A stretch of 64,000 bases of DNA from Candidatus Woesebacteria bacterium RIFCSPLOWO2_01_FULL_39_23 (GTDB lineage: Bacteria; Patescibacteriota; Microgenomatia; UBA8517), in the NCBI GenBank assembly GCA_001793095.1, contig MGHG01000009.1, forward strand, positions 90,391 through 154,390. The letters run 5' to 3'. Of the stretch, positions 1 to 9,688 are shown piece by piece. The stretch's first letter is position 1. Each line of letters begins with the position of its first letter. The notes below the pieces were generated by a model. That model was not told the DNA's origin, searched no databases, and was given only the letters and a program-made list of their open reading frames with translations. Made by a program: the position numbers and the translations under genes.

Positions 1-672
1 TGGAAACCAATAGACGACAATAAATTCCTGGAACTCATTTCTATTAGCGACCAACACATAGAGTTGCCATTAAATTATGATCTTAAAAAAGCCAAAGCAG
101 AAAACATTCCAATATTATTTACTACAGGTGGTGATGCTACCAACAAAGGCAGTCAAGAAATACTTCAGGCTTTGGCCTTAACCGATAAAAAAATTAAATG
201 GATTTACTTGATCAAGACATGGCCATCTCCCGGAAGCTTTCGAAGGGGAATTGAAGAGCTGAATTTGGCTATAAAAGAACATTTTTGGGAACGTATACGA
301 TACATCAGTGGTGAATTTTCCAGAGAATTTATGAGAAATTTAATGAATATCTGCGATATCTATATTGCTTGTTCTAGAACAGAAGGTTTTGGTTTGCCGT
401 TAGTTGAAGCCCAAATGTGCGGCAAACCAGTAATAACTATGAAGGCAACTTCTACCCAAGAAGTGGTTATAGATGGTGTTGGGGGATTAGTTTGCCCATC
501 AATTGAAACCGTTCAAGGACCTAGAGCAGATATTCATGGATTATCTGTTGTGTTAGAAAAGCTTTTACTTGACAGAGAACTAATAGTAAAATTGGGAACC
601 GGTGGTCAGCAATTTGCCAGAAACAATTTCTCACCGCAGGTAATAGCCAAAAAGTTTTTAAGTTCAATATGA
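1..672 (+). CDS. Glycosyltransferase family 1, C-terminal part; 5' end truncated by the window edge
   Basis: The reading frame is open from base 1. The EGFGLPLVEAQMCGKPVI motif is typical of the GT1/GT4 C-terminal domain. The stop overlaps the next start (ATGA). Confidence 0.6.
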   Translation, partial: WKPIDDNKFLELISISDQHIELPLNYDLKKAKAENIPILFTTGGDATNKGSQEILQALALTDKKIKWIYLIKTWPSPGSFRRGIEELNLAIKEHFWERIRYISGEFSREFMRNLMNICDIYIACSRTEGFGLPLVEAQMCGKPVITMKATSTQEVVIDGVGGLVCPSIETVQGPRADIHGLSVVLEKLLLDRELIVKLGTGGQQFARNNFSPQVIAKKFLSSI

Positions 673-1865
673 AGGATCTTGAACTGATTCTAGGAGTTAA
701 AAGAAGACCTATTCGGGTAATATATGTTTCTTCATATATTCCACGAAAGTGCGGAATTGCTACCTATACCAAGGATTTAACTAATGCCATCAATCTTTTG
801 AATCCATACGCTCTGGCAGAAATAATGGCCGTTAATCGACCGAGAGAAGATTTGAATTATCCGTGGGAAACAAAATTCAAAATTAATCAGGAAGAGTTAA
901 CTTCTTACCTTCAAGCGGCAGATTATATTAATCATTCGGGAGCGGATATAGTCTCTCTACAGCATGAATTCGGATTATTCGGTAGCCATTTAGGAGAAAA
1001 TATAATACCTTTTGTGGAATCTCTTAAACGCCCATTAGTCACGACGCTGCATACCGTGTTTGTTGAACCCAACAGTAGTGGTGGAGTTATCATTAAGAGA
1101 TTGATAGAAAAATCAAAAGTATCAATCGTTATGATGGAAAAAATTAAAAACGAACTTATTCAAAAATATCATGCATCGGCCGATAAAATTGTTACCATAC
1201 CTCACGGTACGCCGGACTTACCTTACGCTCCTACCGACGGATACAAGAAAAAGAAAAGACTATCAGACAGATTGGTTTTAGGAAATATCAATCTTTTAAC
1301 ACAAAATAAAGGAGTTGAATATATATTGGAGGCGGTTTCTCTAATTGCCAAAAGATATCCAACTGTATTATATTTTGTGATCGGCCAGACTCACCCAGTA
1401 GATTTGCAGTATAACGGGGAGACATACCGCAAGTCTTTAATAACAAGAGTTAAAAAGTTAAAGATTGAAAAGAATGTCAGGTTTATTAATAAATACATAT
1501 CTCTAGACGAACTAATTGACTGGCTTGGAGTAATGGACTTTTACATCACTTCCTATCTTGATCCTCAACAGGCATCTTCAGGGGCCTTAGCCTACGCAGT
1601 TGGTGCCGGTAAATGTTGTATTTCAAGTCCATATATTTATGCTCAAGAGGTTCTTTCGCATGGGAGGGGAATTATTGTTCCGTTCCGAGATGCAAAATCC
1701 ATTGCTTCAGCAGTAATTGATTTATGGGAAAATAAAGACAAAAAGATGAAAATAGAAAAAGACGCATACGAATACGGTAGATTGATGACGTGGTCAAGCG
1801 TTGCGCTTCAATATCTGGATCTATTTAGAACTATATTACACAACGGCAGTTACGTAAATCATTAA
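669..1865 (+). CDS. Glycosyltransferase group 1 (GT4-like)
   Basis: 398 aa. The N-terminal domain is GT-B like and the C-terminal region (VIGQTHP...GAGKCCISSPYIYAQE) resembles the GT1/GT4 nucleotide-sugar binding domain. It is translationally coupled to the upstream GT. Confidence 0.55.
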   Translation: MKDLELILGVKRRPIRVIYVSSYIPRKCGIATYTKDLTNAINLLNPYALAEIMAVNRPREDLNYPWETKFKINQEELTSYLQAADYINHSGADIVSLQHEFGLFGSHLGENIIPFVESLKRPLVTTLHTVFVEPNSSGGVIIKRLIEKSKVSIVMMEKIKNELIQKYHASADKIVTIPHGTPDLPYAPTDGYKKKKRLSDRLVLGNINLLTQNKGVEYILEAVSLIAKRYPTVLYFVIGQTHPVDLQYNGETYRKSLITRVKKLKIEKNVRFINKYISLDELIDWLGVMDFYITSYLDPQQASSGALAYAVGAGKCCISSPYIYAQEVLSHGRGIIVPFRDAKSIASAVIDLWENKDKKMKIEKDAYEYGRLMTWSSVALQYLDLFRTILHNGSYVNH

Positions 1866-1874
1866 AAAGGTATC

Positions 1875-2948
1875 GTGGTAAAACTTGAAGATTATTCACT
1901 TACCCACATTATACGTATGACAGATGATGTTGGTATCTTTGAACATTGCATTTTTGCAACCCCCGATAGATTAGAAGGTTACTGTACTGACGACAACGCA
2001 CGAGCTTTACAACTTGCACTTCGTGTGAAAAAAGAATCATTAGTAAACACGTATCTCAGATTTATAGTCTCAGCACGGACCCCTAAAGGTTTCCATCAGG
2101 ATTTAAAATCAGACTTTACATGGAGAGATGATGATGGGGTAAACGAAGGTTTTGGGCGAGCAATGGCAGCTTTAGGAGAAGCATCGATTAGTGCTCCGAC
2201 GGATGATCAAAAATTAACCGCGGTTTTTATTTTCGACAAACAAGCAATTTTAATAAAAGATGCAAGAGAACCTAGAACTATCGCTCAAGTAATAACCGGA
2301 ATTTTTCACAGAATGAAATTTGAAGCTGCAAACTCTAATTTAGTACCACTACTTGTCATGCGTAAAAAACTAGAGGGAAATACGTTAGTTGGGTTGTCAG
2401 GAAATTTAGAAATAGAATTGATCCGTCTTGCAGACAGATTAACAAAATTTTACCTTACTAATTCATCTTCTTCTTGGAAATGGTACGAAGATCTAATTAC
2501 TTATGATAATGGCAGACTCCCTTTAGCCTTGTTCTATGCTTACCAAACCACCGGAAATAAAAAATATCTCGAAGTTGCCAAAGAATCCTTAGATTTCCTG
2601 ATAGATAAAACTTACGATAACTCGAAGGACTACTTTTCCTTTCCAGGCTATAGAGGATGGTTTCCTAAAGACGGTGAAAAGGCCCTTTTTGGCCAACAGC
2701 CAATAGAAGCAGGAAGTATTGTTGAAGTTTGTTCTGAGGTTTTTAAGATCACAAAAGAACGTAAATATTTAGATTTTGCAAAAATCGCGTTATCCTGGTA
2801 CTCGGGCAAGAATATTTTAGGGATCTCGCTGATTGACAAAATAACTTGTGGAATATATGACGGTTTGGAACCCTGGGGTTTTAATCCTAACCAGGGTGCT
2901 GAGTCTACAATTTCCTACCTCTTGGCCCGCTCTTCTTTCGAGAGTTAA
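1875..2948 (+). CDS. Hypothetical protein, possibly glycosidase-like (alpha/alpha-toroid); function uncertain
   Basis: 357 aa ORF with a GTG start, co-directional and tightly linked to the two GT genes. No firm motif was recognised. Confidence 0.3.
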   Translation: MVKLEDYSLTHIIRMTDDVGIFEHCIFATPDRLEGYCTDDNARALQLALRVKKESLVNTYLRFIVSARTPKGFHQDLKSDFTWRDDDGVNEGFGRAMAALGEASISAPTDDQKLTAVFIFDKQAILIKDAREPRTIAQVITGIFHRMKFEAANSNLVPLLVMRKKLEGNTLVGLSGNLEIELIRLADRLTKFYLTNSSSSWKWYEDLITYDNGRLPLALFYAYQTTGNKKYLEVAKESLDFLIDKTYDNSKDYFSFPGYRGWFPKDGEKALFGQQPIEAGSIVEVCSEVFKITKERKYLDFAKIALSWYSGKNILGISLIDKITCGIYDGLEPWGFNPNQGAESTISYLLARSSFES

Positions 2949-3043
2949 AACTAGTATTTATTTTAAGCATTCGAGAATACCAGAGGCGTTAGCCTCAGTA
3001 TGAATCGAACGCGCAAAAACAAACTTGTTGAGCCTGAAAGGCG

Positions 3044-3075
3044 AAACTACTCATGTTTTTAGGCATGAGTAGTTT
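3044..3075 (+). terminator. Perfect 12-bp stem hairpin (AAACTACTCATG/CATGAGTAGTTT) downstream of the GT cluster; possible terminator
   Basis: Inverted repeat seen directly in the sequence. It is followed by TATATG rather than a clean U-run. Confidence 0.25.
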
Positions 3076-3498
3076 ATATGTTGACAAAAATCGCCTCTTG
3101 ATTCGGGTTTACTTCGGGATAATAATAGAGTGGAAGAGCGAGAGAGCAGGAGAGTTTAAGTTTTTAAATACCGATACTCTTACACTCTTTTACTCTTCTA
3201 CTCTAATGTCATGATTGAGAAAATCTCGACGCCAGTGTCCGTATCGATGACTTTTGACAGCACTAGTCGACGTGTCCAGCCTAAAATTGTGATTTGGCAT
3301 GGCCGCCTCTACCCTATCGTTAAGACTGGACTTCACCACACTTACAGGCAGGGGCGAACTCTTTTCCATGTTTTCTCCGTTGCCAGCAAGACGTTATTTT
3401 TTAGATTGGTTCTAGATACCGAAACCCTGTATTGGAGGTTGGAAGAGATTTCCGATGGAATGACAAATTAGCGCTTAAACTTATTATAATAAAAAAGT

Positions 3499-4134
3499 AT
3501 GGAATCTGATGAAAACATGTCGGCATACCCGTTTCGAGTTCAGCCGGGAGAAGAAATAGCGAGAGGATGGTCTGAATCGCGGGTGTACAGACACGAACCC
3601 GGTTGGGTTTTGAAAATTACTTATAGGAAATCCAGAAATAGTAAAGAGCAACTTGCAGAGAATAAAGCTGACTATGAATTTTTTAAAAGCAGACTTGGCG
3701 AATATGTACCTGAAACGCAATTTTTAATCGGACAGGATGAAAAAGGAAGAAGGGTTAATATTGTCAGACAAAAAGAAATTGCCGGCAGAACTTTATTATC
3801 TTTTACAGATGAGGAAATTAAGGAAAATATCCAACTGCAACGAAATTTAGTTGTGTTGTTTGAGAGAATAATTAAAATGTGGGAAGAGGATGGAAGAATT
3901 CCCGACCTCGTTGGACCCAGAAAGGGTGGTAGGTCATTTTTGACAAAATTTACTCCAGGTACCCATCCGGAACATACACCCAATATTATAGTTGAAGAAG
4001 GAACTAGTAAGCCTTATTTGGTTGACACCTCTGCTTCAGTAAGGTTTCAATCCAAGGATTCCCCTTTCCCCTACTTAAAGCTTAGCGAAATGATTGTAGC
4101 GAATATGCGAAGGTTTGTTAGTAAATATACTTAG
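3499..4134 (+). CDS. Hypothetical protein with weak protein-kinase-like features
   Basis: 211 aa. It has a glycine-loop-like GWSESRVY...VLKI segment, a catalytic-loop-like HTPNIIVEEG and a DFG-like LVDTS. The assignment is tentative. Confidence 0.3.
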   Translation: MESDENMSAYPFRVQPGEEIARGWSESRVYRHEPGWVLKITYRKSRNSKEQLAENKADYEFFKSRLGEYVPETQFLIGQDEKGRRVNIVRQKEIAGRTLLSFTDEEIKENIQLQRNLVVLFERIIKMWEEDGRIPDLVGPRKGGRSFLTKFTPGTHPEHTPNIIVEEGTSKPYLVDTSASVRFQSKDSPFPYLKLSEMIVANMRRFVSKYT

Positions 4135-4178
4135 CAATTATTATATACGGAGGTTGAGAAAAGTTTAGCAGAATAAAT

Positions 4179-4817
4179 ATGGCATACATTTTTTTGGACG
4201 AATCTGGTGATTTGGGTTTTGATCCTAAAAAGAAAAATTCAAAATTCTTTTTAATAACAATGGTCTTTGCTGCCGATAAAAAACCTCTGGAGAAAATTGT
4301 TAAAAAGGTACACAAAATGCTGAGAAAAAAAGTAAAAAGACTGAGTGGCGGTGTGTTGCATTGTGCTAAAGAGAAGCCAATAACAAGAAAACGTTTGTTA
4401 AATTTTTTAAAAGGACACGATTTCCCCGTGATGCTTATTTGTTTAAATAAGTCAAGGGTTCACACGAAGCTGCAGAATGAGAAACACGTGCTTTATAACT
4501 ATGTGGCTAATATATTAATTGACAGGATACTTACAAAGAGGTTAATTGACCCAGAGGGGAAGATAATTTTAATTGCGTCGAAAAGAGAGACTAACAAATT
4601 TTTAAATTTGAATTTTAAGAATTATCTTCAAAATCAAGTAAAAAATAGACACAGGCTTAATTTGGATATTGAAATCAAAACACCCGCTCAGGAAAAAACC
4701 CTTCAAGCTGTTGATTTTGTAAGTTGGTCAATTTTTCGTAAATATGAACATGGAGACCCAAGTTATTACCACCTTATTAAAGATCTTGTTGTTGAGGAAA
4801 ATAACTTGTTTAAGTAA
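4179..4817 (+). CDS. DUF3800 family protein
   Basis: The N-terminus MAYIFLDESGDLGF matches the DUF3800 hallmark (YIDESG). 212 aa. Confidence 0.45.
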   Translation: MAYIFLDESGDLGFDPKKKNSKFFLITMVFAADKKPLEKIVKKVHKMLRKKVKRLSGGVLHCAKEKPITRKRLLNFLKGHDFPVMLICLNKSRVHTKLQNEKHVLYNYVANILIDRILTKRLIDPEGKIILIASKRETNKFLNLNFKNYLQNQVKNRHRLNLDIEIKTPAQEKTLQAVDFVSWSIFRKYEHGDPSYYHLIKDLVVEENNLFK

Positions 4818-4946
4818 AACAAAACCCCGTGTGCTATTTACGAGCAACCATCCGGATGCCCACACACGAGGATTTACTTGCTAACTACATAGTACTAGAC
4901 GACTACTTTAATGTCAAGCATTACCGAATAATATACGAATACTGGT

Positions 4947-6305
4947 ATGGAAAATATTCTTAATTTTAATCCCAGGCCATCTACAATCCTACATATTGAT
5001 CTTAATTCCTGCTTTGCGACTATCGAACAGCAGGCAAACCCACATCTCCGGGGGAAACCCGTTGCTGTTGCGGCTTACACGAGCTCTAATGGCTGTATCC
5101 TTGCTCCCTCTATTGAGGCTAAGAAATATGGTGTAAAAACCGGAATGAGAGTAAAGGACGGGATGCTTTTGTGTCCTAATTTAATAATTTTACCTTCCGA
5201 TCCCTGGAAATACCGCAACGTCCATCTTAGCCTAAGGCAATTGCTTTCAAACTACACACCTGACGTTATGCCTAAGAGCATAGATGAGTTTGTATTAGAC
5301 TTTCAGAGAGTTGGAGGGATCAGAGGATCGGAAAACTCGGAGTATTCAGATGGTCAGATAGCCAGAGAGTCAGAATTCCGGAAATCTGGTGATCCGATGC
5401 TCGGGTCCCCTGAGTTTTCTGAGGGCTCCGGTTCTCCGTTATGTCGAGTTGCTCAAGAGATCAAGCAGCGTATCAAGCAAGAGGTTGGAGAGTGGCTGAC
5501 TGTTTCGATTGGAATTGCCCCGAATAGGTTTTTGGCAAAACTTGCGTCGGGTTTGCATAAACCGGACGGCCTCGATGAAATTAATAAAGGTAATTTCTTG
5601 GGAGTTTATTCTCAACTTGAACTTACTGATTTGCCTTATATTAAAATGCGTAACGCCATTAGGCTTAATCGTATGGAAATTTTTAGTGTTGTCGATTTTT
5701 ATCATGCACCGCTTTGGAAATTGAAAGCAGCTTTTGAGTCAGTTAATGGTTATTATTGGTATTTGAGGTTAAGGGGGCAGGAAATAGATGATGTCGCTTT
5801 CGGAAGACGAAGCTACGGCAATTCGTATGCGCTCCCCCGCCCTCTAGCCACACCGGAAGACTTGTCGCCTATTTTGACTAAGTTGGTAACTAAGACAGGT
5901 GCCCGTCTTAGGCATGCGGGGTATGCTGCCCGCGGAGTGCACGTTGCCGTAGGCTATAGGGACGGTAGTTTTTGGCATAAGGGTGTGACTTTCAGTAAAA
6001 ACTTATTTGAGTCACGAGAGATTTATAAGTGTTCACTTAGAATTCTTTGTCAGTCTCCGTATCGTAGGCCGGTCAGAGATTTGGCTATTTCGGTCTTCGA
6101 TTTGCGAAGAAAGGAGAGCCTTCAGCTTGAACTTTTTGAGGATGCTGTTGCTAAGGAGAATTTAGCTAAAGCGGTTGATCGGGTGAACGAGCGTTGGGGT
6201 GATTTTGTGGTTACACCGGCGCGCATGGTTAGTGCTTCGAGCGAAGTTCCAGACAGAATCGCGTTCGGCGGGATTAAGGAGCTAGAAGAATTTGCACTAA
6301 GCTAA
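4947..6305 (+). CDS. dinB: DNA polymerase IV (Y-family translesion polymerase) with a ~45 aa lineage-specific insertion
   Basis: Matches ILHIDLNSCFATIEQ..GKPVAV, SIDEFVLDF and SIGIAPNRFLAKLAS. 452 aa against the usual ~360; the extra segment is GIRGSENSEYSDGQIARESEFRKSGDPMLGSPEFSEGSGSP. Confidence 0.8.
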   Translation: MENILNFNPRPSTILHIDLNSCFATIEQQANPHLRGKPVAVAAYTSSNGCILAPSIEAKKYGVKTGMRVKDGMLLCPNLIILPSDPWKYRNVHLSLRQLLSNYTPDVMPKSIDEFVLDFQRVGGIRGSENSEYSDGQIARESEFRKSGDPMLGSPEFSEGSGSPLCRVAQEIKQRIKQEVGEWLTVSIGIAPNRFLAKLASGLHKPDGLDEINKGNFLGVYSQLELTDLPYIKMRNAIRLNRMEIFSVVDFYHAPLWKLKAAFESVNGYYWYLRLRGQEIDDVAFGRRSYGNSYALPRPLATPEDLSPILTKLVTKTGARLRHAGYAARGVHVAVGYRDGSFWHKGVTFSKNLFESREIYKCSLRILCQSPYRRPVRDLAISVFDLRRKESLQLELFEDAVAKENLAKAVDRVNERWGDFVVTPARMVSASSEVPDRIAFGGIKELEEFALS

Positions 6306-6328
6306 CAAAAACCCTTTGGTGATTACCG

Positions 6329-6925
6329 TTAAAGCTGTGACAAATCAACGCTGTCTCCTAGCTTTACTCCGTATTTATCGGAAAAGCCTGTATTGACTTC
6401 AAGAACATATCTAATAGGTTGCGTAGAAGAATATGTGGGTAGTTTTGAATTTGGAGTATCCAAAGATGGTTTGGGTACATTTTTATCAATATCAGCTATG
6501 ATTCCTTTGTTATCGATCCAAATCATGTCGAGCGGAAAAAGCATTTCTTTCATCCAGAAATGAGGTATGGAGTCTGAAGCGAAAATGAAAATCATTCCTT
6601 CTTCGTCGCTGATCGGTGCATGTCCCGAAAGACCCAATGTTTGTAATGCTGGAGTATCTGCCACTTCAACGGTAAGAGTTTTATCCGCAATTTTGATCTC
6701 CTTTTTCTTAGCTTTTTCTACAACGGTTTTTGTGTCTTCGGATGATATATCTTTACCCGCCTGCAACGCTTGAGGCGTCCCGCTCGCATCGCTACGCGAA
6801 ACGTTTCGGGTGAGAGCATCTGCGGGCAGGTATGTAACATTGGGGTTGCGAAATGCGAATTTATAGAAAACAGCAATCACGATAACGAGAGCTGCAATTG
6901 CTATCGAGATTTTATGTTTAGTCAT
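6329..6925 (-). CDS. DUF192 (COG1430) family protein with N-terminal TM; carries a 33-aa in-frame inserted element
   Basis: The C-terminal HFWMKEMLFPLDMIWID..G..RYVLEV pattern is typical of DUF192. It has an N-terminal hydrophobic helix. Confidence 0.5.
   Translation of the reverse strand: MTKHKISIAIAALVIVIAVFYKFAFRNPNVTYLPADALTRNVSRSDASGTPQALQAGKDISSEDTKTVVEKAKKKEIKIADKTLTVEVADTPALQTLGLSGHAPISDEEGMIFIFASDSIPHFWMKEMLFPLDMIWIDNKGIIADIDKNVPKPSLDTPNSKLPTYSSTQPIRYVLEVNTGFSDKYGVKLGDSVDLSQL
6742..6841. mobile_element. In-frame palindromic inserted element, copy 1 (~100 bp, 33 codons) inside the DUF192 gene
   Basis: About 94% identical to 28041-28140, which lies inside an unrelated gene. It contains nested inverted repeats (CGCCTGCAACGCTTGAGGCG and the perfect palindrome CGAAACGTTTCG). 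Confidence 0.6.
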
Positions 6926-6930
6926 TCAGA

Positions 6931-7194
6931 CTAGTATGAAGCATTAAGTTCTTTTTCAATAGCACTGATTTCTCTGTCAATTTCACTCAAATCGGTGTCA
7001 TTAATATCTTTTTCTATCGCTTCTACATCATCGGACTGTGATTGCGTTTGGATTTGACGGATTTCAGTAGAGGCTTTTTCAGGAGTAACAGGAGCTCTCT
7101 TTTGAGAAAAGAAAGAAAAAATAACTATACCCATTAATATTAATACGATAGATAAAGTTAAGAGAAAATTATTATTTTTATTTTTTAATATCAT
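6931..7194 (-). CDS. Small membrane protein (N-terminal TM, acidic C-terminus)
   Basis: 87 aa ORF tightly packed between neighbouring minus-strand genes. Confidence 0.35.
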   Translation of the reverse strand: MILKNKNNNFLLTLSIVLILMGIVIFSFFSQKRAPVTPEKASTEIRQIQTQSQSDDVEAIEKDINDTDLSEIDREISAIEKELNASY

Positions 7195-7196
7195 AA

Positions 7197-7877
7197 TTAA
7201 GGTGTTGGGACTGGCGTTTCACTTGGTTCGGGTGTCGGTGTATTAGTTGGTACCGGGGTCTCAGTGGGAGTAGGCGTTTCACTTGGTTCAACTATTGAGG
7301 TAGGAGCCGGCGTTGTATTGCCTACTCTTAACCCTTTTATTTGGCCGATAACTTGTACTAGAATTTTATGAACTTTTGTCAGATTATCCTTTATTTTTTT
7401 GATATTGTCTTTGACCTCTTTGAAGGCTGTTTTTGGATTTTCGGAAGCAAGAACTTCTTCTAATTTAGTTTTAGTATCTTGTAAAAGAAGTTGTGTGTCA
7501 GCTAATAACTTTTTAGCGTCAGCTATTTGGGTTTTTACAGATGGATCTACCGGAGTTCCAGAAGCTTCAATTTTGGCAACACGGGATTCAATTCTTCCAG
7601 CTAACTTATCAAGCCTTAATATAAGTGCCCCAATTCGTGTCACCATTTGATTGAAAAATGCTCTTACGTGTTCTTCTTTTGCTTGGCTGACACGAGCAGA
7701 GTTAGTAGCGCGTTTTTCTGCATTTTTTTCCTTTATTTCAGAGAGTTTAAGTTGCCTTTCTTCAGTACGCTCCTCTTTTGTTGGTTTAGATGAATCACTT
7801 GAAGTAGTTGCAAATACAAAACTTGGAGTAATTCCCAGAAGAATTATAGTTGCCAGGGCAGTAATAAATTTTGGCAT
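7197..7877 (-). CDS. Secreted coiled-coil protein with a C-terminal Pro/Thr-rich repeat linker
   Basis: It has a signal-peptide-like N-terminus and a long heptad-rich region. The 3' end encodes TPxPTETPVPT repeats from a tandem DNA repeat at about 7200-7300. Confidence 0.45.
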   Translation of the reverse strand: MPKFITALATIILLGITPSFVFATTSSDSSKPTKEERTEERQLKLSEIKEKNAEKRATNSARVSQAKEEHVRAFFNQMVTRIGALILRLDKLAGRIESRVAKIEASGTPVDPSVKTQIADAKKLLADTQLLLQDTKTKLEEVLASENPKTAFKEVKDNIKKIKDNLTKVHKILVQVIGQIKGLRVGNTTPAPTSIVEPSETPTPTETPVPTNTPTPEPSETPVPTP

Positions 7878-8105
7878 GAATATATTCTATGAAAAAAACT
7901 ATCGTTTTGTCAAGTTCGTTAAGTGCCTTAAAGATTATTGAAGAGTGTAGTGAAAATAAGGAGAGTGACGATAAAGACGATAAATGGGAAGAAGTATAAA
8001 AGTACGGCGATATTATTATAAGGATGCTTGGGGTAAATATGAATTTTATTATCCATTAAATAAAATTATAAATAATAATTCGGGGAATTGTAAGTTAGAG
8101 TTATG

Positions 8106-8188
8106 TGCCCTCGAGAGGATTTGAACCTCTACCCCTAAACGGGACAGGATCCTAAATCCTGCGCGTCTGCCAATTTCGCCACGAGGGC
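8106..8188 (-). tRNA. tRNA-Leu (anticodon TAG), type II
   Basis: Cloverleaf reconstructed by hand. It has a GCCCTCG/CGAGGGC acceptor stem, a long variable arm, a TTTAGGA anticodon loop and an A discriminator. Confidence 0.8.
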
Positions 8189-8225
8189 ATTACATATAAT
8201 TCGTAGTTTGGAAGTATTATAACAT

Positions 8226-8753
8226 TTATAAATCGAATTCGAGCGGTGTCGAATCAATTTTGCTCATGAAAAATTCGACTTTTCCACCCCAAGTTGAACT
8301 TGGAGGAGCATAGCGGCGTGCAATGCTTTTAATTGTTACTGCTCCCTTATCCTTATATTTAAGTCTTAAGGTTTTGGTAACATGTTCAATTGAATCCTCC
8401 CACGAACTAAAACGGTATTCTCCGTTCGCCCAACCATATGCATTAAATGAATTTTTGGGTATTCTTTTACCGAACGTAGATTCTACACCACTTATTGCCG
8501 GAATCAGCCTCCAGTCAATATTATAAACGTCAGCCCAATAAACAAAGTACTTTGCATAAGGAGTAAGGGGTGAATTATATTTTTTAAAGAATATTTTCAG
8601 TTTAAGTGTTCTATAATCCATCTCATAGTTACCAATATTGGTTATAGTATAGGAATCAGAATAATTAGGTACGCTAACAGCTGCCCTTGCGTTGGGTGTA
8701 AGTGTTGCATATAGAATAAACATCACAATTGAAAATACTTTTACATTTCTCAT
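8226..8753 (-). CDS. Membrane-anchored lysozyme-like / lytic-transglycosylase-like protein
   Basis: It has an N-terminal TM and the motif ISGVESTFG...YGW. The ORF-track start at 8798 is probably an N-terminal over-extension; the Met at 8753 is preferred. Confidence 0.4.
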   Translation of the reverse strand: MRNVKVFSIVMFILYATLTPNARAAVSVPNYSDSYTITNIGNYEMDYRTLKLKIFFKKYNSPLTPYAKYFVYWADVYNIDWRLIPAISGVESTFGKRIPKNSFNAYGWANGEYRFSSWEDSIEHVTKTLRLKYKDKGAVTIKSIARRYAPPSSTWGGKVEFFMSKIDSTPLEFDL

Positions 8754-8899
8754 ATAATCTTTCCAAAAAGAAGGGAGGTACCGTCTGGTACCTCCCATAA
8801 AAAATTCTGACGCTTTTCAAGACTATAAGTCTGAATTGCCTCAGAACATGATGCTAATATAGCATAATACTACAGGATTGTCAAGCTTGTGGGGGTTGA

Positions 8900-9688
8900 T
8901 TACGTCTTTTTTGCAAGTATGAAAATAGAAGGACCGAAATTGATTCTGGAGAATGGTTTCTGAAGCTGATTTTCCAAGAAAAGAAGAGTTTCTATAGTTA
9001 AAAGTTTTTTTATGAAGTTACTTCTTATATTAGAAACAGATCTTTGTTCTATTATTGTAAAGCCGCTATCTCTAAGCTTTTGTCTTATAATATCCGGGTG
9101 ATAGTTAAAAAACGGTAAAGTTTTTTCTTTTTTTGATTTACTACTTCGAACATCTTTAGGGTAGATATCCAGAAAAAAAGTTAAATTGCCTCTTAATAAT
9201 TCTGTAATAGCCGCCTTGAGGTGAATTTTATTTGGAAACTCAATGATTAAATAGCCATTTGGTTTTAATAGGTTGTGTATTATTCTTATTGATTTATCCA
9301 GATCTTTAATATGATGGAGAACTCTGACAATCAGGATTAAGTCGACTGAATTTTTTCTTATTTTTGACGGTAGTTTTTCTATCGGTGAGCGTATGAATTT
9401 TACGTTTTTTCTGTTAAATTCTTTTTTCGCTATCGCTAATAGTTTGGCCGATGGGTCTGTCAAAATGATATTCTTACCTCGAAAAATATATGTCGGTGTA
9501 AGGCGGCCAAAGCCGACCCCAATATCGAGTATTTTACCTATCTTTTTGATTTTAGAGAGAAAGCCGGAAATTGCGATTACTTCAGCCTTATGTTCGTATT
9601 CGCGTCCAACCCAATAATTCGGATAATCAAATGTGTCGTATGCTGCAGACATATATATTACACCACAAATTATACTTGGAATATGCAA
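8900..9688 (-). CDS. Class I SAM-dependent methyltransferase
   Basis: It has a glycine-rich SAM motif (ILDIGVGFGRL) and LKPNGYLIIEFPN. Confidence 0.65.
   Translation of the reverse strand: MHIPSIICGVIYMSAAYDTFDYPNYWVGREYEHKAEVIAISGFLSKIKKIGKILDIGVGFGRLTPTYIFRGKNIILTDPSAKLLAIAKKEFNRKNVKFIRSPIEKLPSKIRKNSVDLILIVRVLHHIKDLDKSIRIIHNLLKPNGYLIIEFPNKIHLKAAITELLRGNLTFFLDIYPKDVRSSKSKKEKTLPFFNYHPDIIRQKLRDSGFTIIEQRSVSNIRSNFIKKLLTIETLLFLENQLQKPFSRINFGPSIFILAKKT

Follow-up and report, generated by a model that had tools for sequence, protein, structure and literature searches.

Between the glycan genes and dinB of a Candidatus Woesebacteria genome lie two accessory genes, and the question that they raise is whether they work together or whether each belongs to something else. 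The locus is part of a 64,000-nucleotide (nt) stretch of contig MGHG01000009.1 (positions 90,391 to 154,390) of Candidatus Woesebacteria bacterium RIFCSPLOWO2_01_FULL_39_23, which we call the window and whose numbering we use throughout. Its two co-directional open reading frames (ORFs), ORF1 and ORF2, lie exactly at 3499-4134 and 4179-4817, where an initial annotation had placed them; that annotation had taken the first for a kinase-like protein and the second for a DUF3800 protein, and had seen in the pair a candidate cassette inserted beside dinB. We find that ORF1 and the DUF3800 gene are accidental neighbours within an insertion hotspot, not a functional cassette, and that the DUF3800 gene has another and invariant partner, a 67-nt structured RNA gene that converges on its stop codon (Table 1). 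Two unrelated accessory genes in one hotspot are ordinary by themselves; the noteworthy part is the RNA, which we treat as uncatalogued.

A structured RNA gene accompanies the DUF3800 gene at all 80 related loci compared

For ORF2 we compared 80 loci that code close relatives (54-70% identity, one genome per GTDB species), which are the best 80 of at least 519 relatives. Downstream of the DUF3800 stop codon these loci nearly always have a gap of 100 nt or more, which starts with a highly conserved stretch of ~70 nt. Read on the minus strand, the consensus of 78 loci runs TTGACA, 17 nt, TATAAT, ~5 nt, ACAAGUAAnUCCUCGUGCGUGGGCUUCCGGAUGGUUGCUCGUAAAUAGCGnACGGGGUUUUGU and then a U-run that meets the stop codon. 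The initial annotation had described a hairpin at this place in the window, followed by dinB. The position of dinB was right, but the hairpin is no simple terminator; it is the 67-nt RNA gene of the minus strand.

The three helices of the RNA (P1 to P3 in Table 1) were tested as one hairpin on 72 distinct sequences. Standard pairs fill 89% of the cells, and 15 of the 25 pairs change on both sides, in 246 cells where 81 would be expected. In 500 shuffles not one of the five measures was equalled, and when the 3′ partners are slid by 1-3 columns, pairing drops to 26-50%. Helix P2 is 99.3% paired, with covariation at 7 of its 10 pairs. There are 16 invariant columns, several of them unpaired, and the internal loops and tandem U-U pairs are conserved across phyla. 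Such conserved unpaired nucleotides suggest recognition by a protein rather than plain antisense pairing.

The strand of this RNA can be read from the same alignment. In the minus-strand reading there are 289 G-U cells and 16 A-C cells, and pairing is 89% compared with 73.8% on the plus strand. The minimum free energy is -25.1 kcal/mol (z -3.9) for the minus strand and -13.1 kcal/mol (z -1.8) for the plus strand. From the G-U excess, the pairing and the fold energy, we conclude that the minus strand is the functional one and reject the plus strand.

The RNA gene also has a promoter of its own, and this is the best promoter-like site between positions 2900 and 5000 of the window, with 10 of 12 positions matched. 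Its -10 element ends 5 nt before the first position of the RNA model (4883). Across 78 loci, the TT of the -35 element and the TA...T of the -10 element are at least 90% conserved, and 78% of loci, but only 5.5% of shuffles, reach 9 or more of the 12 consensus positions at the distance expected.

We built a covariance model of the RNA, named R1, with several of the 80 loci left out of its building. In the window R1 finds a single copy, the one described here (87.6 bits, E 2e-20), and it finds a copy at the same position in 80/80 DUF3800 loci, including several outside the model building. By this model the sister loci L106 and L108, which are free of DUF3800, have no copy. Thus, within the 212-amino-acid (aa) subfamily of ORF2, the protein never occurs without the RNA at any of the 80 loci. 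The initial annotation had proposed looking for recurring partners beside DUF3800 homologues; no protein fills that role, and the invariant partner is the RNA gene. The DUF3800 gene and its convergent RNA gene are a compact, self-contained two-part module of ~0.8 kb, with a near-consensus promoter, which travels together across many phyla.

The loci also vary in ways that we record here as side observations. Of the 80 loci, 18 have a DnaA-box-like 9-mer, TTATCCACA / TGTGGATAA in one or the other orientation, in the first 400 nt beyond the DUF3800 stop codon, where chance predicts ~0.5 such loci (among them L012, L014, L016, L020, L021, L027, L029, L032, L035, L039, L048, L049, L059, L061, L070, L075 and L078). 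In the loci inspected it stands within ~20 nt upstream of the -35 element of the RNA promoter, and it is absent from the window; it may couple expression of the RNA to DnaA. Locus L231 has two tandem RNA genes (861-933 and 1074-1140, minus strand) after a divergent DUF3800 gene, a second tandem copy seen only there, and L076 has a weak second copy of the RNA at 2898-2963. In L021 (6642-6728, minus strand) the 3′ internal loop of the RNA holds an extra 20-nt hairpin and is thus a tolerated expansion site. Some 0.5 kb downstream of the module in L046, a Yanofskybacteria contig, there is a group I intron (7189-7480, minus strand; RF00028, 51 bits at a gathering score of 50).

The DUF3800 protein and its surroundings

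The assignment of ORF2 to DUF3800 in the initial annotation holds: it matches PF12686 over profile positions 1-149 of 149 with an E value of 2.1e-12 and 48.4 bits, the cut-off being 21. The protein has an RNase H2-like fold, the fold of RNase HII, and its LDESGD segment resembles the DEAG motif of RNase HII. Residues D7, E8, E137, Q176 and D179 are invariant in 24 sequences, and an active nuclease site is therefore likely in ORF2. Its N-terminal DE motif and its C-terminal QxxD motif (LQAVDF) are as described for DUF3800 proteins (PMC7736814).

More than 3,000 homologues of ORF2 are in the protein database, the best 120 of them at 61-70% identity. By their record titles the 80 loci come from many Patescibacteria groups, Omnitrophota, Nitrospirae, Bacteroidota/Ignavibacteria, Deltaproteobacteria, Elusimicrobia and others, and a breadth of this order argues for horizontal spread. 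All-against-all clustering of the 889 neighbouring ORFs of these loci yielded no conserved protein partner. The largest neighbour family, the N6 methylases, occurs in 14/80 loci, and N6-methylase or restriction-modification genes in at least 14/80; neighbours confirmed by Pfam include HsdR, HsdS and HsdM (type I), Eco57I/MmeI-type (type IIG) enzymes, Fic and recombinases. The defence flavour that the initial annotation had sensed is plausible, in that restriction-modification genes are frequent neighbours of this DUF3800 subfamily.

Upstream of the DUF3800 gene, the loci have no leader or promoter in common. In many of them (e.g., L003, L006, L007, L011, L050, L056 and L077) a TATAAT-like -10 box stands 6-9 nt before the DUF3800 ATG, with no Shine-Dalgarno sequence. 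A -10-like box so near the ATG suggests leaderless DUF3800 mRNAs.

RNA copies without the DUF3800 gene

When IMG/VR was scanned by pattern and the matches were then scored with the covariance model (E < 1e-6), eight viral contigs proved to have the RNA, and only one of them, L100, also has DUF3800 (tblastn; profile HMM, E <= 10). At least five clear phage contigs (L101, L097, L099, L095 and L087) carry the RNA without DUF3800, and portal, terminase, major head protein, endolysin, Erf or methyltransferase genes are found on them. The phage copies are full-length and structure-preserving, at 63-78 bits. In the five phage loci we saw no integrase-like ORF near the RNA, from ORF lists read by eye and partly profile-scanned. 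Phage contig L097 has one 125-nt block in common with the Saccharibacteria locus L071, at 98.4% identity, and beyond the promoter and the RNA this block takes in only 12 nt from the 3′ end of DUF3800.

An RNA-first pattern scan of metagenomes, which is noisy, returned 119 pattern matches, of which ~51 are true RNAs by the covariance model. An adjacent convergent DUF3800 gene was found in 38/119 matches, and in L180 and L231 the DUF3800 genes are divergent. At least six loci (L116, L205, L198, L193, L123 and L227) have kept the RNA and its promoter while DUF3800 is cut to its last codons, and such RNA-only remnants always keep those codons. The RNA-only copy of L116 lies inside a YoeB/HepT/HicA toxin island.

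What the RNA may do

The reading that we favour, at a probability of about 40%, is that the RNA is antitoxin-like, binding and restraining the DUF3800 nuclease in a module of the toxin-antitoxin or abortive-infection type, with the phage copies as decoys. The abundantly transcribed RNA would bind the nuclease and keep it inactive, so that the RNA would play the part of antitoxin and the protein that of toxin. If the supply of RNA fell or the complex were disturbed, for example by phage infection, the nuclease would be freed, cut nucleic acid and stop growth. In phages with the RNA gene alone, the RNA would be a decoy antitoxin. We favour this because the protein is never found without the RNA (80/80 loci) while the RNA persists without the protein, because phages carry the RNA alone, and because the RNA promoter is near consensus while the signals of the protein gene are weak or leaderless. 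The context of defence and toxin-antitoxin islands points the same way, and here we count the hotspot of L112, which holds a type ISP restriction enzyme and DUF3800; so does the DUF3800 of retrons, which likewise accompanies structured nucleic acid.

The nearest precedent for this logic, a nuclease restrained by a small structured RNA encoded beside it, is the type III toxin-antitoxin systems (ToxIN, CptIN, TenpIN). The defence or mobile context is similar and so are the phage-borne RNA copies, a pseudo-ToxI in a Pectobacterium phage reportedly being an escape route. Type III RNAs are encoded as tandem repeats, upstream of the toxin gene and on its strand, and the toxin processes them.

A number of points weigh against the antitoxin reading. 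The layout differs from that of type III systems, since a single convergent RNA gene lies downstream here, and so does the toxin fold, which in type III is not the RNase H fold while DUF3800 is RNase H2-like. The RNA consensus has 0 matches in 50,697 records of cultured phages, PADLOC models do not match ORF2, and plasmids gave one weak ORF2 match only (30% identity; the RNA itself was not searched there). R1 finds no copy beside the 241-aa DUF3800 of L112, and more distant DUF3800 genes, beyond the best 80 of at least 519, may behave differently. At L205 a Pfam-confirmed tyrosine integrase gene abuts the 3′ side of the RNA; an integrase-like fragment is nearby in L198 (by eye), and L193 and L123 are grouped with these two only by similar RNA flanks. 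In such integrase-side loci the RNA gene may be an integration target, with DUF3800 displaced rather than lost. Finally, the same co-occurrence of protein and RNA is expected from an obligatory RNA cofactor.

This last point leads to the main rival, which we regard as unlikely, namely a ribonucleoprotein enzyme. The DUF3800 nuclease would then need the RNA as its scaffold, activator or guide, much as other nucleases need tracrRNA or omega RNA, and the pair would act on a nucleic-acid target. The RNA, however, has no variable single-stranded guide segment, its variation being compensatory within helices, and RNA-only copies with a conservation of their own, in phages and in loci with decayed genes, are harder to explain in this way. 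Cis antisense action of a type I-like kind, where pairing or transcription collision over the convergent 3′ overlap lowers DUF3800 expression without RNA-protein contact, seems to us improbable. It would account for the convergent genes with the RNA 3′ end at the DUF3800 stop codon, for the last DUF3800 codons that every RNA-only remnant keeps, and for the plus strand, with its weak fold (-13.1 kcal/mol) and no evident intrinsic terminator. Yet for the two transcripts to pair, the DUF3800 mRNA would have to extend into the RNA gene, and 16 invariant columns with internal loops and tandem U-U pairs conserved across phyla are more than antisense pairing needs.

We give very little credence to a purely DNA-level element, that is, a recombination or attachment site (like integron attC or phage att) that moves the DUF3800 gene or integrates elements. 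In its favour, an ORF ends directly before the element, which forms an imperfect palindrome, the 125-nt block is common to phage L097 and host locus L071, and a tyrosine integrase is found at the RNA 3′ side in the four loci named above, with the evidence given there for each. A DNA site does not explain the strand-specific G-U excess, the conserved -35/-10 promoter at fixed distance or the U-run after the element; in the five phage loci no integrase was seen close to the element, with the scope given above, and there are no cassette arrays. An att site and an RNA gene could in any case share one stretch of DNA, as tRNA genes show.

The antitoxin reading can be extended to a wider claim, namely that DUF3800 and the 67-nt RNA are a new anti-phage system of RNA antitoxin and RNase H-fold toxin, spread horizontally across phyla and especially common in Patescibacteria, which have few known defences, and that phages counter it with the RNA gene alone. 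In this full form we consider the claim somewhat doubtful. What the module offers is a clean case, with a short conserved RNA, its own promoter, a presence in 80/80 loci of a widespread DUF3800 subfamily and intact lone copies in phage genomes. A vague association of DUF3800 with RNA thereby becomes a testable model, an RNA-restrained nuclease with a phage decoy, with a 212-aa protein and a 67-nt RNA as its parts.

ORF1 is an independent gene for a kinase-fold protein

A protein identical to ORF1 is on record for Candidatus Woesebacteria bacterium RIFCSPLOWO2_01_FULL_39_23, annotated as hypothetical. The family is rare: there are only 12 close homologues among 5.8 billion clustered proteins, and a profile search of 1.84 billion representatives gave 130 at E <= 0.001. 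The AlphaFold model, made from the 12-sequence alignment, is confident (pLDDT 87, pTM 0.84) and has the bilobal kinase fold. Residues K39, Q91, G96, D136, N162 and D176 are at least 90% conserved among 60 family members, and they include the ATP-binding Lys (K39), the catalytic-loop Asn (N162) and the metal-binding Asp of DFG type (D176). In a profile search against PDB sequences, the G-loop and VLK region aligned to SteC and CK2, and N162...D176 aligned to the HNV...IDWG segment of a kinase (CK2), with E values of 0.02 or weaker.

The HRD catalytic Asp is missing from ORF1: at its place, five residues ahead of N162, stands Pro157, which does not vary. The acidic residue that is conserved, D136, belongs to the GRIPDL segment, and a variable insert of 9-20 residues lies between it and N162; D136 may still be the catalytic base. 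The kinase landmarks of the initial annotation were thus broadly right, but its catalytic loop HTPNIIV was only half right: N162 and D176 align, while the HRD position is Pro157 and the acidic residue is D136. We found no significant Pfam or NCBIfam match of any kind for ORF1, kinase families included, no match to PADLOC defence models and no TPR domain. Sequence similarity to the minimal or atypical kinases OspG/NleH, HopBF1, SteC, RIO and Bud32 is not significant (best SteC, E 0.02), and ORF1 differs from them by Pro157 at the position of the HRD Asp and by the insert between D136 and N162. Two remote relatives are fused to GT2 glycosyltransferases (P0165 and P0200) and one to an alpha/beta hydrolase; therefore a small-molecule or glycan substrate is as plausible for ORF1 as a protein substrate.

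ORF1 homologues at ~60% identity occur in five other contexts (L081; L082-L084; L085; L237; L238), listed in Table 1. Two kinds of neighbour recur beside these genes, a NUDIX hydrolase (L081 and L238) and a Trp-repressor-like protein (L085 and L237).

The suggestion that ORF1 and the DUF3800 gene make up one functional two-gene cassette, perhaps like the Cas13-associated kinase (CASK) system with its Csx33 kinase and Csx32 DUF3800 protein, had some appeal, given that the two ORFs are co-directional and 44 nt apart. A kinase-DUF3800 operon does exist in CASK loci, where, in csx32-csx33-csx34, the DUF3800 gene (csx32) adjoins the protein-kinase gene (preprint 10.64898/2026.08.25.746378). We nevertheless consider a cassette highly improbable. 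By tblastn ORF1 is present in 0/80 DUF3800 loci, and DUF3800 is absent from all five other ORF1 contexts, which rules out a conserved pair; moreover, L074 has the 86-aa gene, DUF3800 and dinB without ORF1. Even in CASK, Csx32 is not a phosphorylation substrate of the kinase (same preprint).

The likeness to CASK ends with a DUF3800 gene adjoining a protein-kinase gene. The CASK kinase is PknG-like, has TPR repeats and is tied to cas13 and to an HTH substrate, whereas ORF1 is a 211-aa minimal kinase fold with no conserved DUF3800 link. There is no cas13 or Csx34-like gene near the locus and no ORF longer than 452 aa in 1-9000 of the window, the neighbours being glycosyltransferases, the 86-aa gene, dinB and DUF192. 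The CASK precedent is not transferable here because there are no TPR repeats and no cas13 or HTH partner, and because the linkage is not conserved.

An insertion hotspot between an 86-aa gene and dinB

The ~550 bp upstream of ORF1 had been described as non-coding and relatively GC-rich. They contain a gene for an 86-aa protein (3211-3471) with 325 homologues, and the higher GC content (0.452) is explained by this coding region. The gene is not called in public assemblies of the same genome, and PADLOC models do not match its product. As a side observation, the 86-aa protein has no known domain, and its gene lies upstream of and co-directional with dinB in every Woesebacteria locus examined; the protein may be a functional partner of the Y-family polymerase.

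The initial annotation was right that accessory DNA has been inserted next to dinB. The synteny of dinB with the 86-aa gene and DUF192 is kept in L074, L106, L108 and L112, and since in sister genomes (L106 and L108/L109) the 86-aa gene stands directly before dinB, ORF1 and DUF3800 are inserted accessory DNA. L074 and L110-L112 have other contents in the same interval. Synteny is decisive here, but base composition, which had been proposed as a further sign of insertion, is not (GC 0.39 for ORF1, 0.32 for ORF2 and 0.366 for the window). The interval from the 86-aa gene to dinB is a variable insertion hotspot in Woesebacteria, and in the window genome it holds two unrelated accessory units, ORF1 and the DUF3800 gene with its RNA gene. 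The genome annotation is thus corrected in three respects, by a missed protein gene, by a missed RNA gene and by a recognisable insertion hotspot beside dinB.

Two further observations concern the borders of the hotspot. The DinB of the window has 452 aa, compared with 415-431 aa for the called dinB genes of sister loci, and at residues ~120-165 it has a low-complexity insert rich in Gly, Ser and Glu (GGIRGSENSEYSDGQ...SGSPL) inside the catalytic domain. At 3044-3075, in the spacer after a glycoside-hydrolase-like gene, there is a perfect 12-bp inverted repeat (AAACTACTCATG, 8 nt, CATGAGTAGTTT) with no T-run on either strand.

Table 1. Features of the window around ORF1 and ORF2, and gene content of the loci compared with it
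Feature	Position	Strand	Description
Small structured RNA gene	4817-4883	-	67 nt; converges on ORF2, reaching its stop codon with the 3′ end
RNA helix P1	4883-4877 with 4823-4817	-	
RNA helix P2	4871-4862 with 4834-4825	-	
RNA helix P3	4861-4854 with 4849-4842	-	loop 4853-4850
Conserved unpaired RNA stretches	4876-4872; 4841-4835	-	UAAAU; GUAAAUA
Promoter of the RNA gene	4889-4917	-	sigma-70-type; -35 TTGACA 4917-4912, 17-nt spacer, -10 TACTAT 4894-4889
ORF2	4179-4817	+	212 aa; DUF3800; RNase H2-like fold; acidic set D7-E8 (LDESGD), E137, Q176xxD179
ORF1	3499-4134	+	211 aa; minimal atypical kinase-fold protein; rare family; independent accessory gene
86-aa protein gene	3211-3471	+	left border of hotspot, outside the module; 325 homologues, ~70-79% identity, essentially all Woesebacteria
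dinB	4947-6305	+	Y-family polymerase; right border of hotspot, outside the module; PF00817 and PF11799 (IMS, IMS_C)
Hotspot, window			86-aa gene, then ORF1, DUF3800, dinB, DUF192
Hotspot, L106			86-aa gene, 116-nt gap, dinB directly; DUF192 nearby on the opposite strand
Hotspot, L108/L109			86-aa gene, 44-nt gap, dinB directly; DUF192 nearby on the opposite strand
Hotspot, L074			86-aa gene, then DUF3800, dinB, DUF192; ORF1 absent
Hotspot, L110-L112			86-aa gene, 1042-aa type ISP restriction-modification enzyme, 241-aa DUF3800, dinB, DUF192
ORF1 context, L081			homologue after ribosomal-protein operon and NUDIX gene; next ORF GNAT-like (judged by eye)
ORF1 context, L082-L084			homologue beside APH, NADAR, cupin and Gp49 genes
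ORF1 context, L085, L237			homologue beside Trp-repressor-like gene (Trp_repressor, PF01371)
ORF1 context, L238			homologue beside NUDIX

Comparison with known DUF3800-associated systems

DUF3800 proteins keep company with retrons, with Cas12a2/a3 and Cas13 loci and with eleven orphan RNA motifs. Its association with CRISPR loci has been described (PMC10910872, PMC13594972). The closest parallel to the module lies in the eleven unrelated RNA motifs, DUF3800-I to -XI, that were found next to DUF3800 genes, with frequent UAA trinucleotides and terminators and with no function proposed (Weinberg et al. 2017, PMC5737381). As in those motifs, which adjoin their genes in either orientation, there is here a conserved, covarying RNA structure next to DUF3800 genes (80/80 loci, 89% paired, 15 pairs with double changes), and the 67-nt RNA has two UAAs in unpaired regions. 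It departs from them in being tied to a single 212-aa DUF3800 subfamily, in always converging on the stop codon and in having a promoter of its own.

At least DUF3800-I, -V and -IX are in Rfam 15 (family ids RF02964, RF02968, RF02969 and others for DUF3800 motifs), and no Rfam 15 family, these motifs included, matches the RNA at E <= 10 in window 4780-4950 or in L012 6600-6780. Scanning the window and L012 yielded nothing beyond chance matches to hairpins or miRNAs, and we therefore rejected a known RNA family. The same library did find DUF3800-V in L009 (6725-6824, minus strand), directly 5′ of the 67-nt RNA, whose usual promoter is missing there, and DUF3800-IX upstream of the DUF3800 gene in L001 (4867-4935, minus strand) and L076 (3047-3115, minus strand). 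Because no Rfam 15 family matches, we treat the 67-nt RNA as a further, uncatalogued DUF3800-associated RNA; judged by Rfam 15 models, it could equal a 2017 motif that was never deposited. If the antitoxin reading is true, it suggests a function for this whole long-unexplained class of DUF3800-associated RNAs.

In type VII retrons, DUF3800 is the RNase H2-like partner of, or fusion to, a reverse transcriptase with its non-coding RNA (Mestre et al. 2020, PMC7736814). The locus studied here is no such retron: next to ORF2 there is no ORF of reverse-transcriptase size and no reverse transcriptase domain, and no Rfam motif associated with retrons or reverse transcriptases was found. The retron DUF3800 clade is reported to miss the Q of the QxxD motif (PMC7736814), while ORF2 keeps QxxD (Q176, D179). 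What the module and the type VII retrons have in common is a structured non-coding nucleic acid paired with an RNase H2-like DUF3800 protein that has the DE motif at its N terminus, with defence as the likely role.

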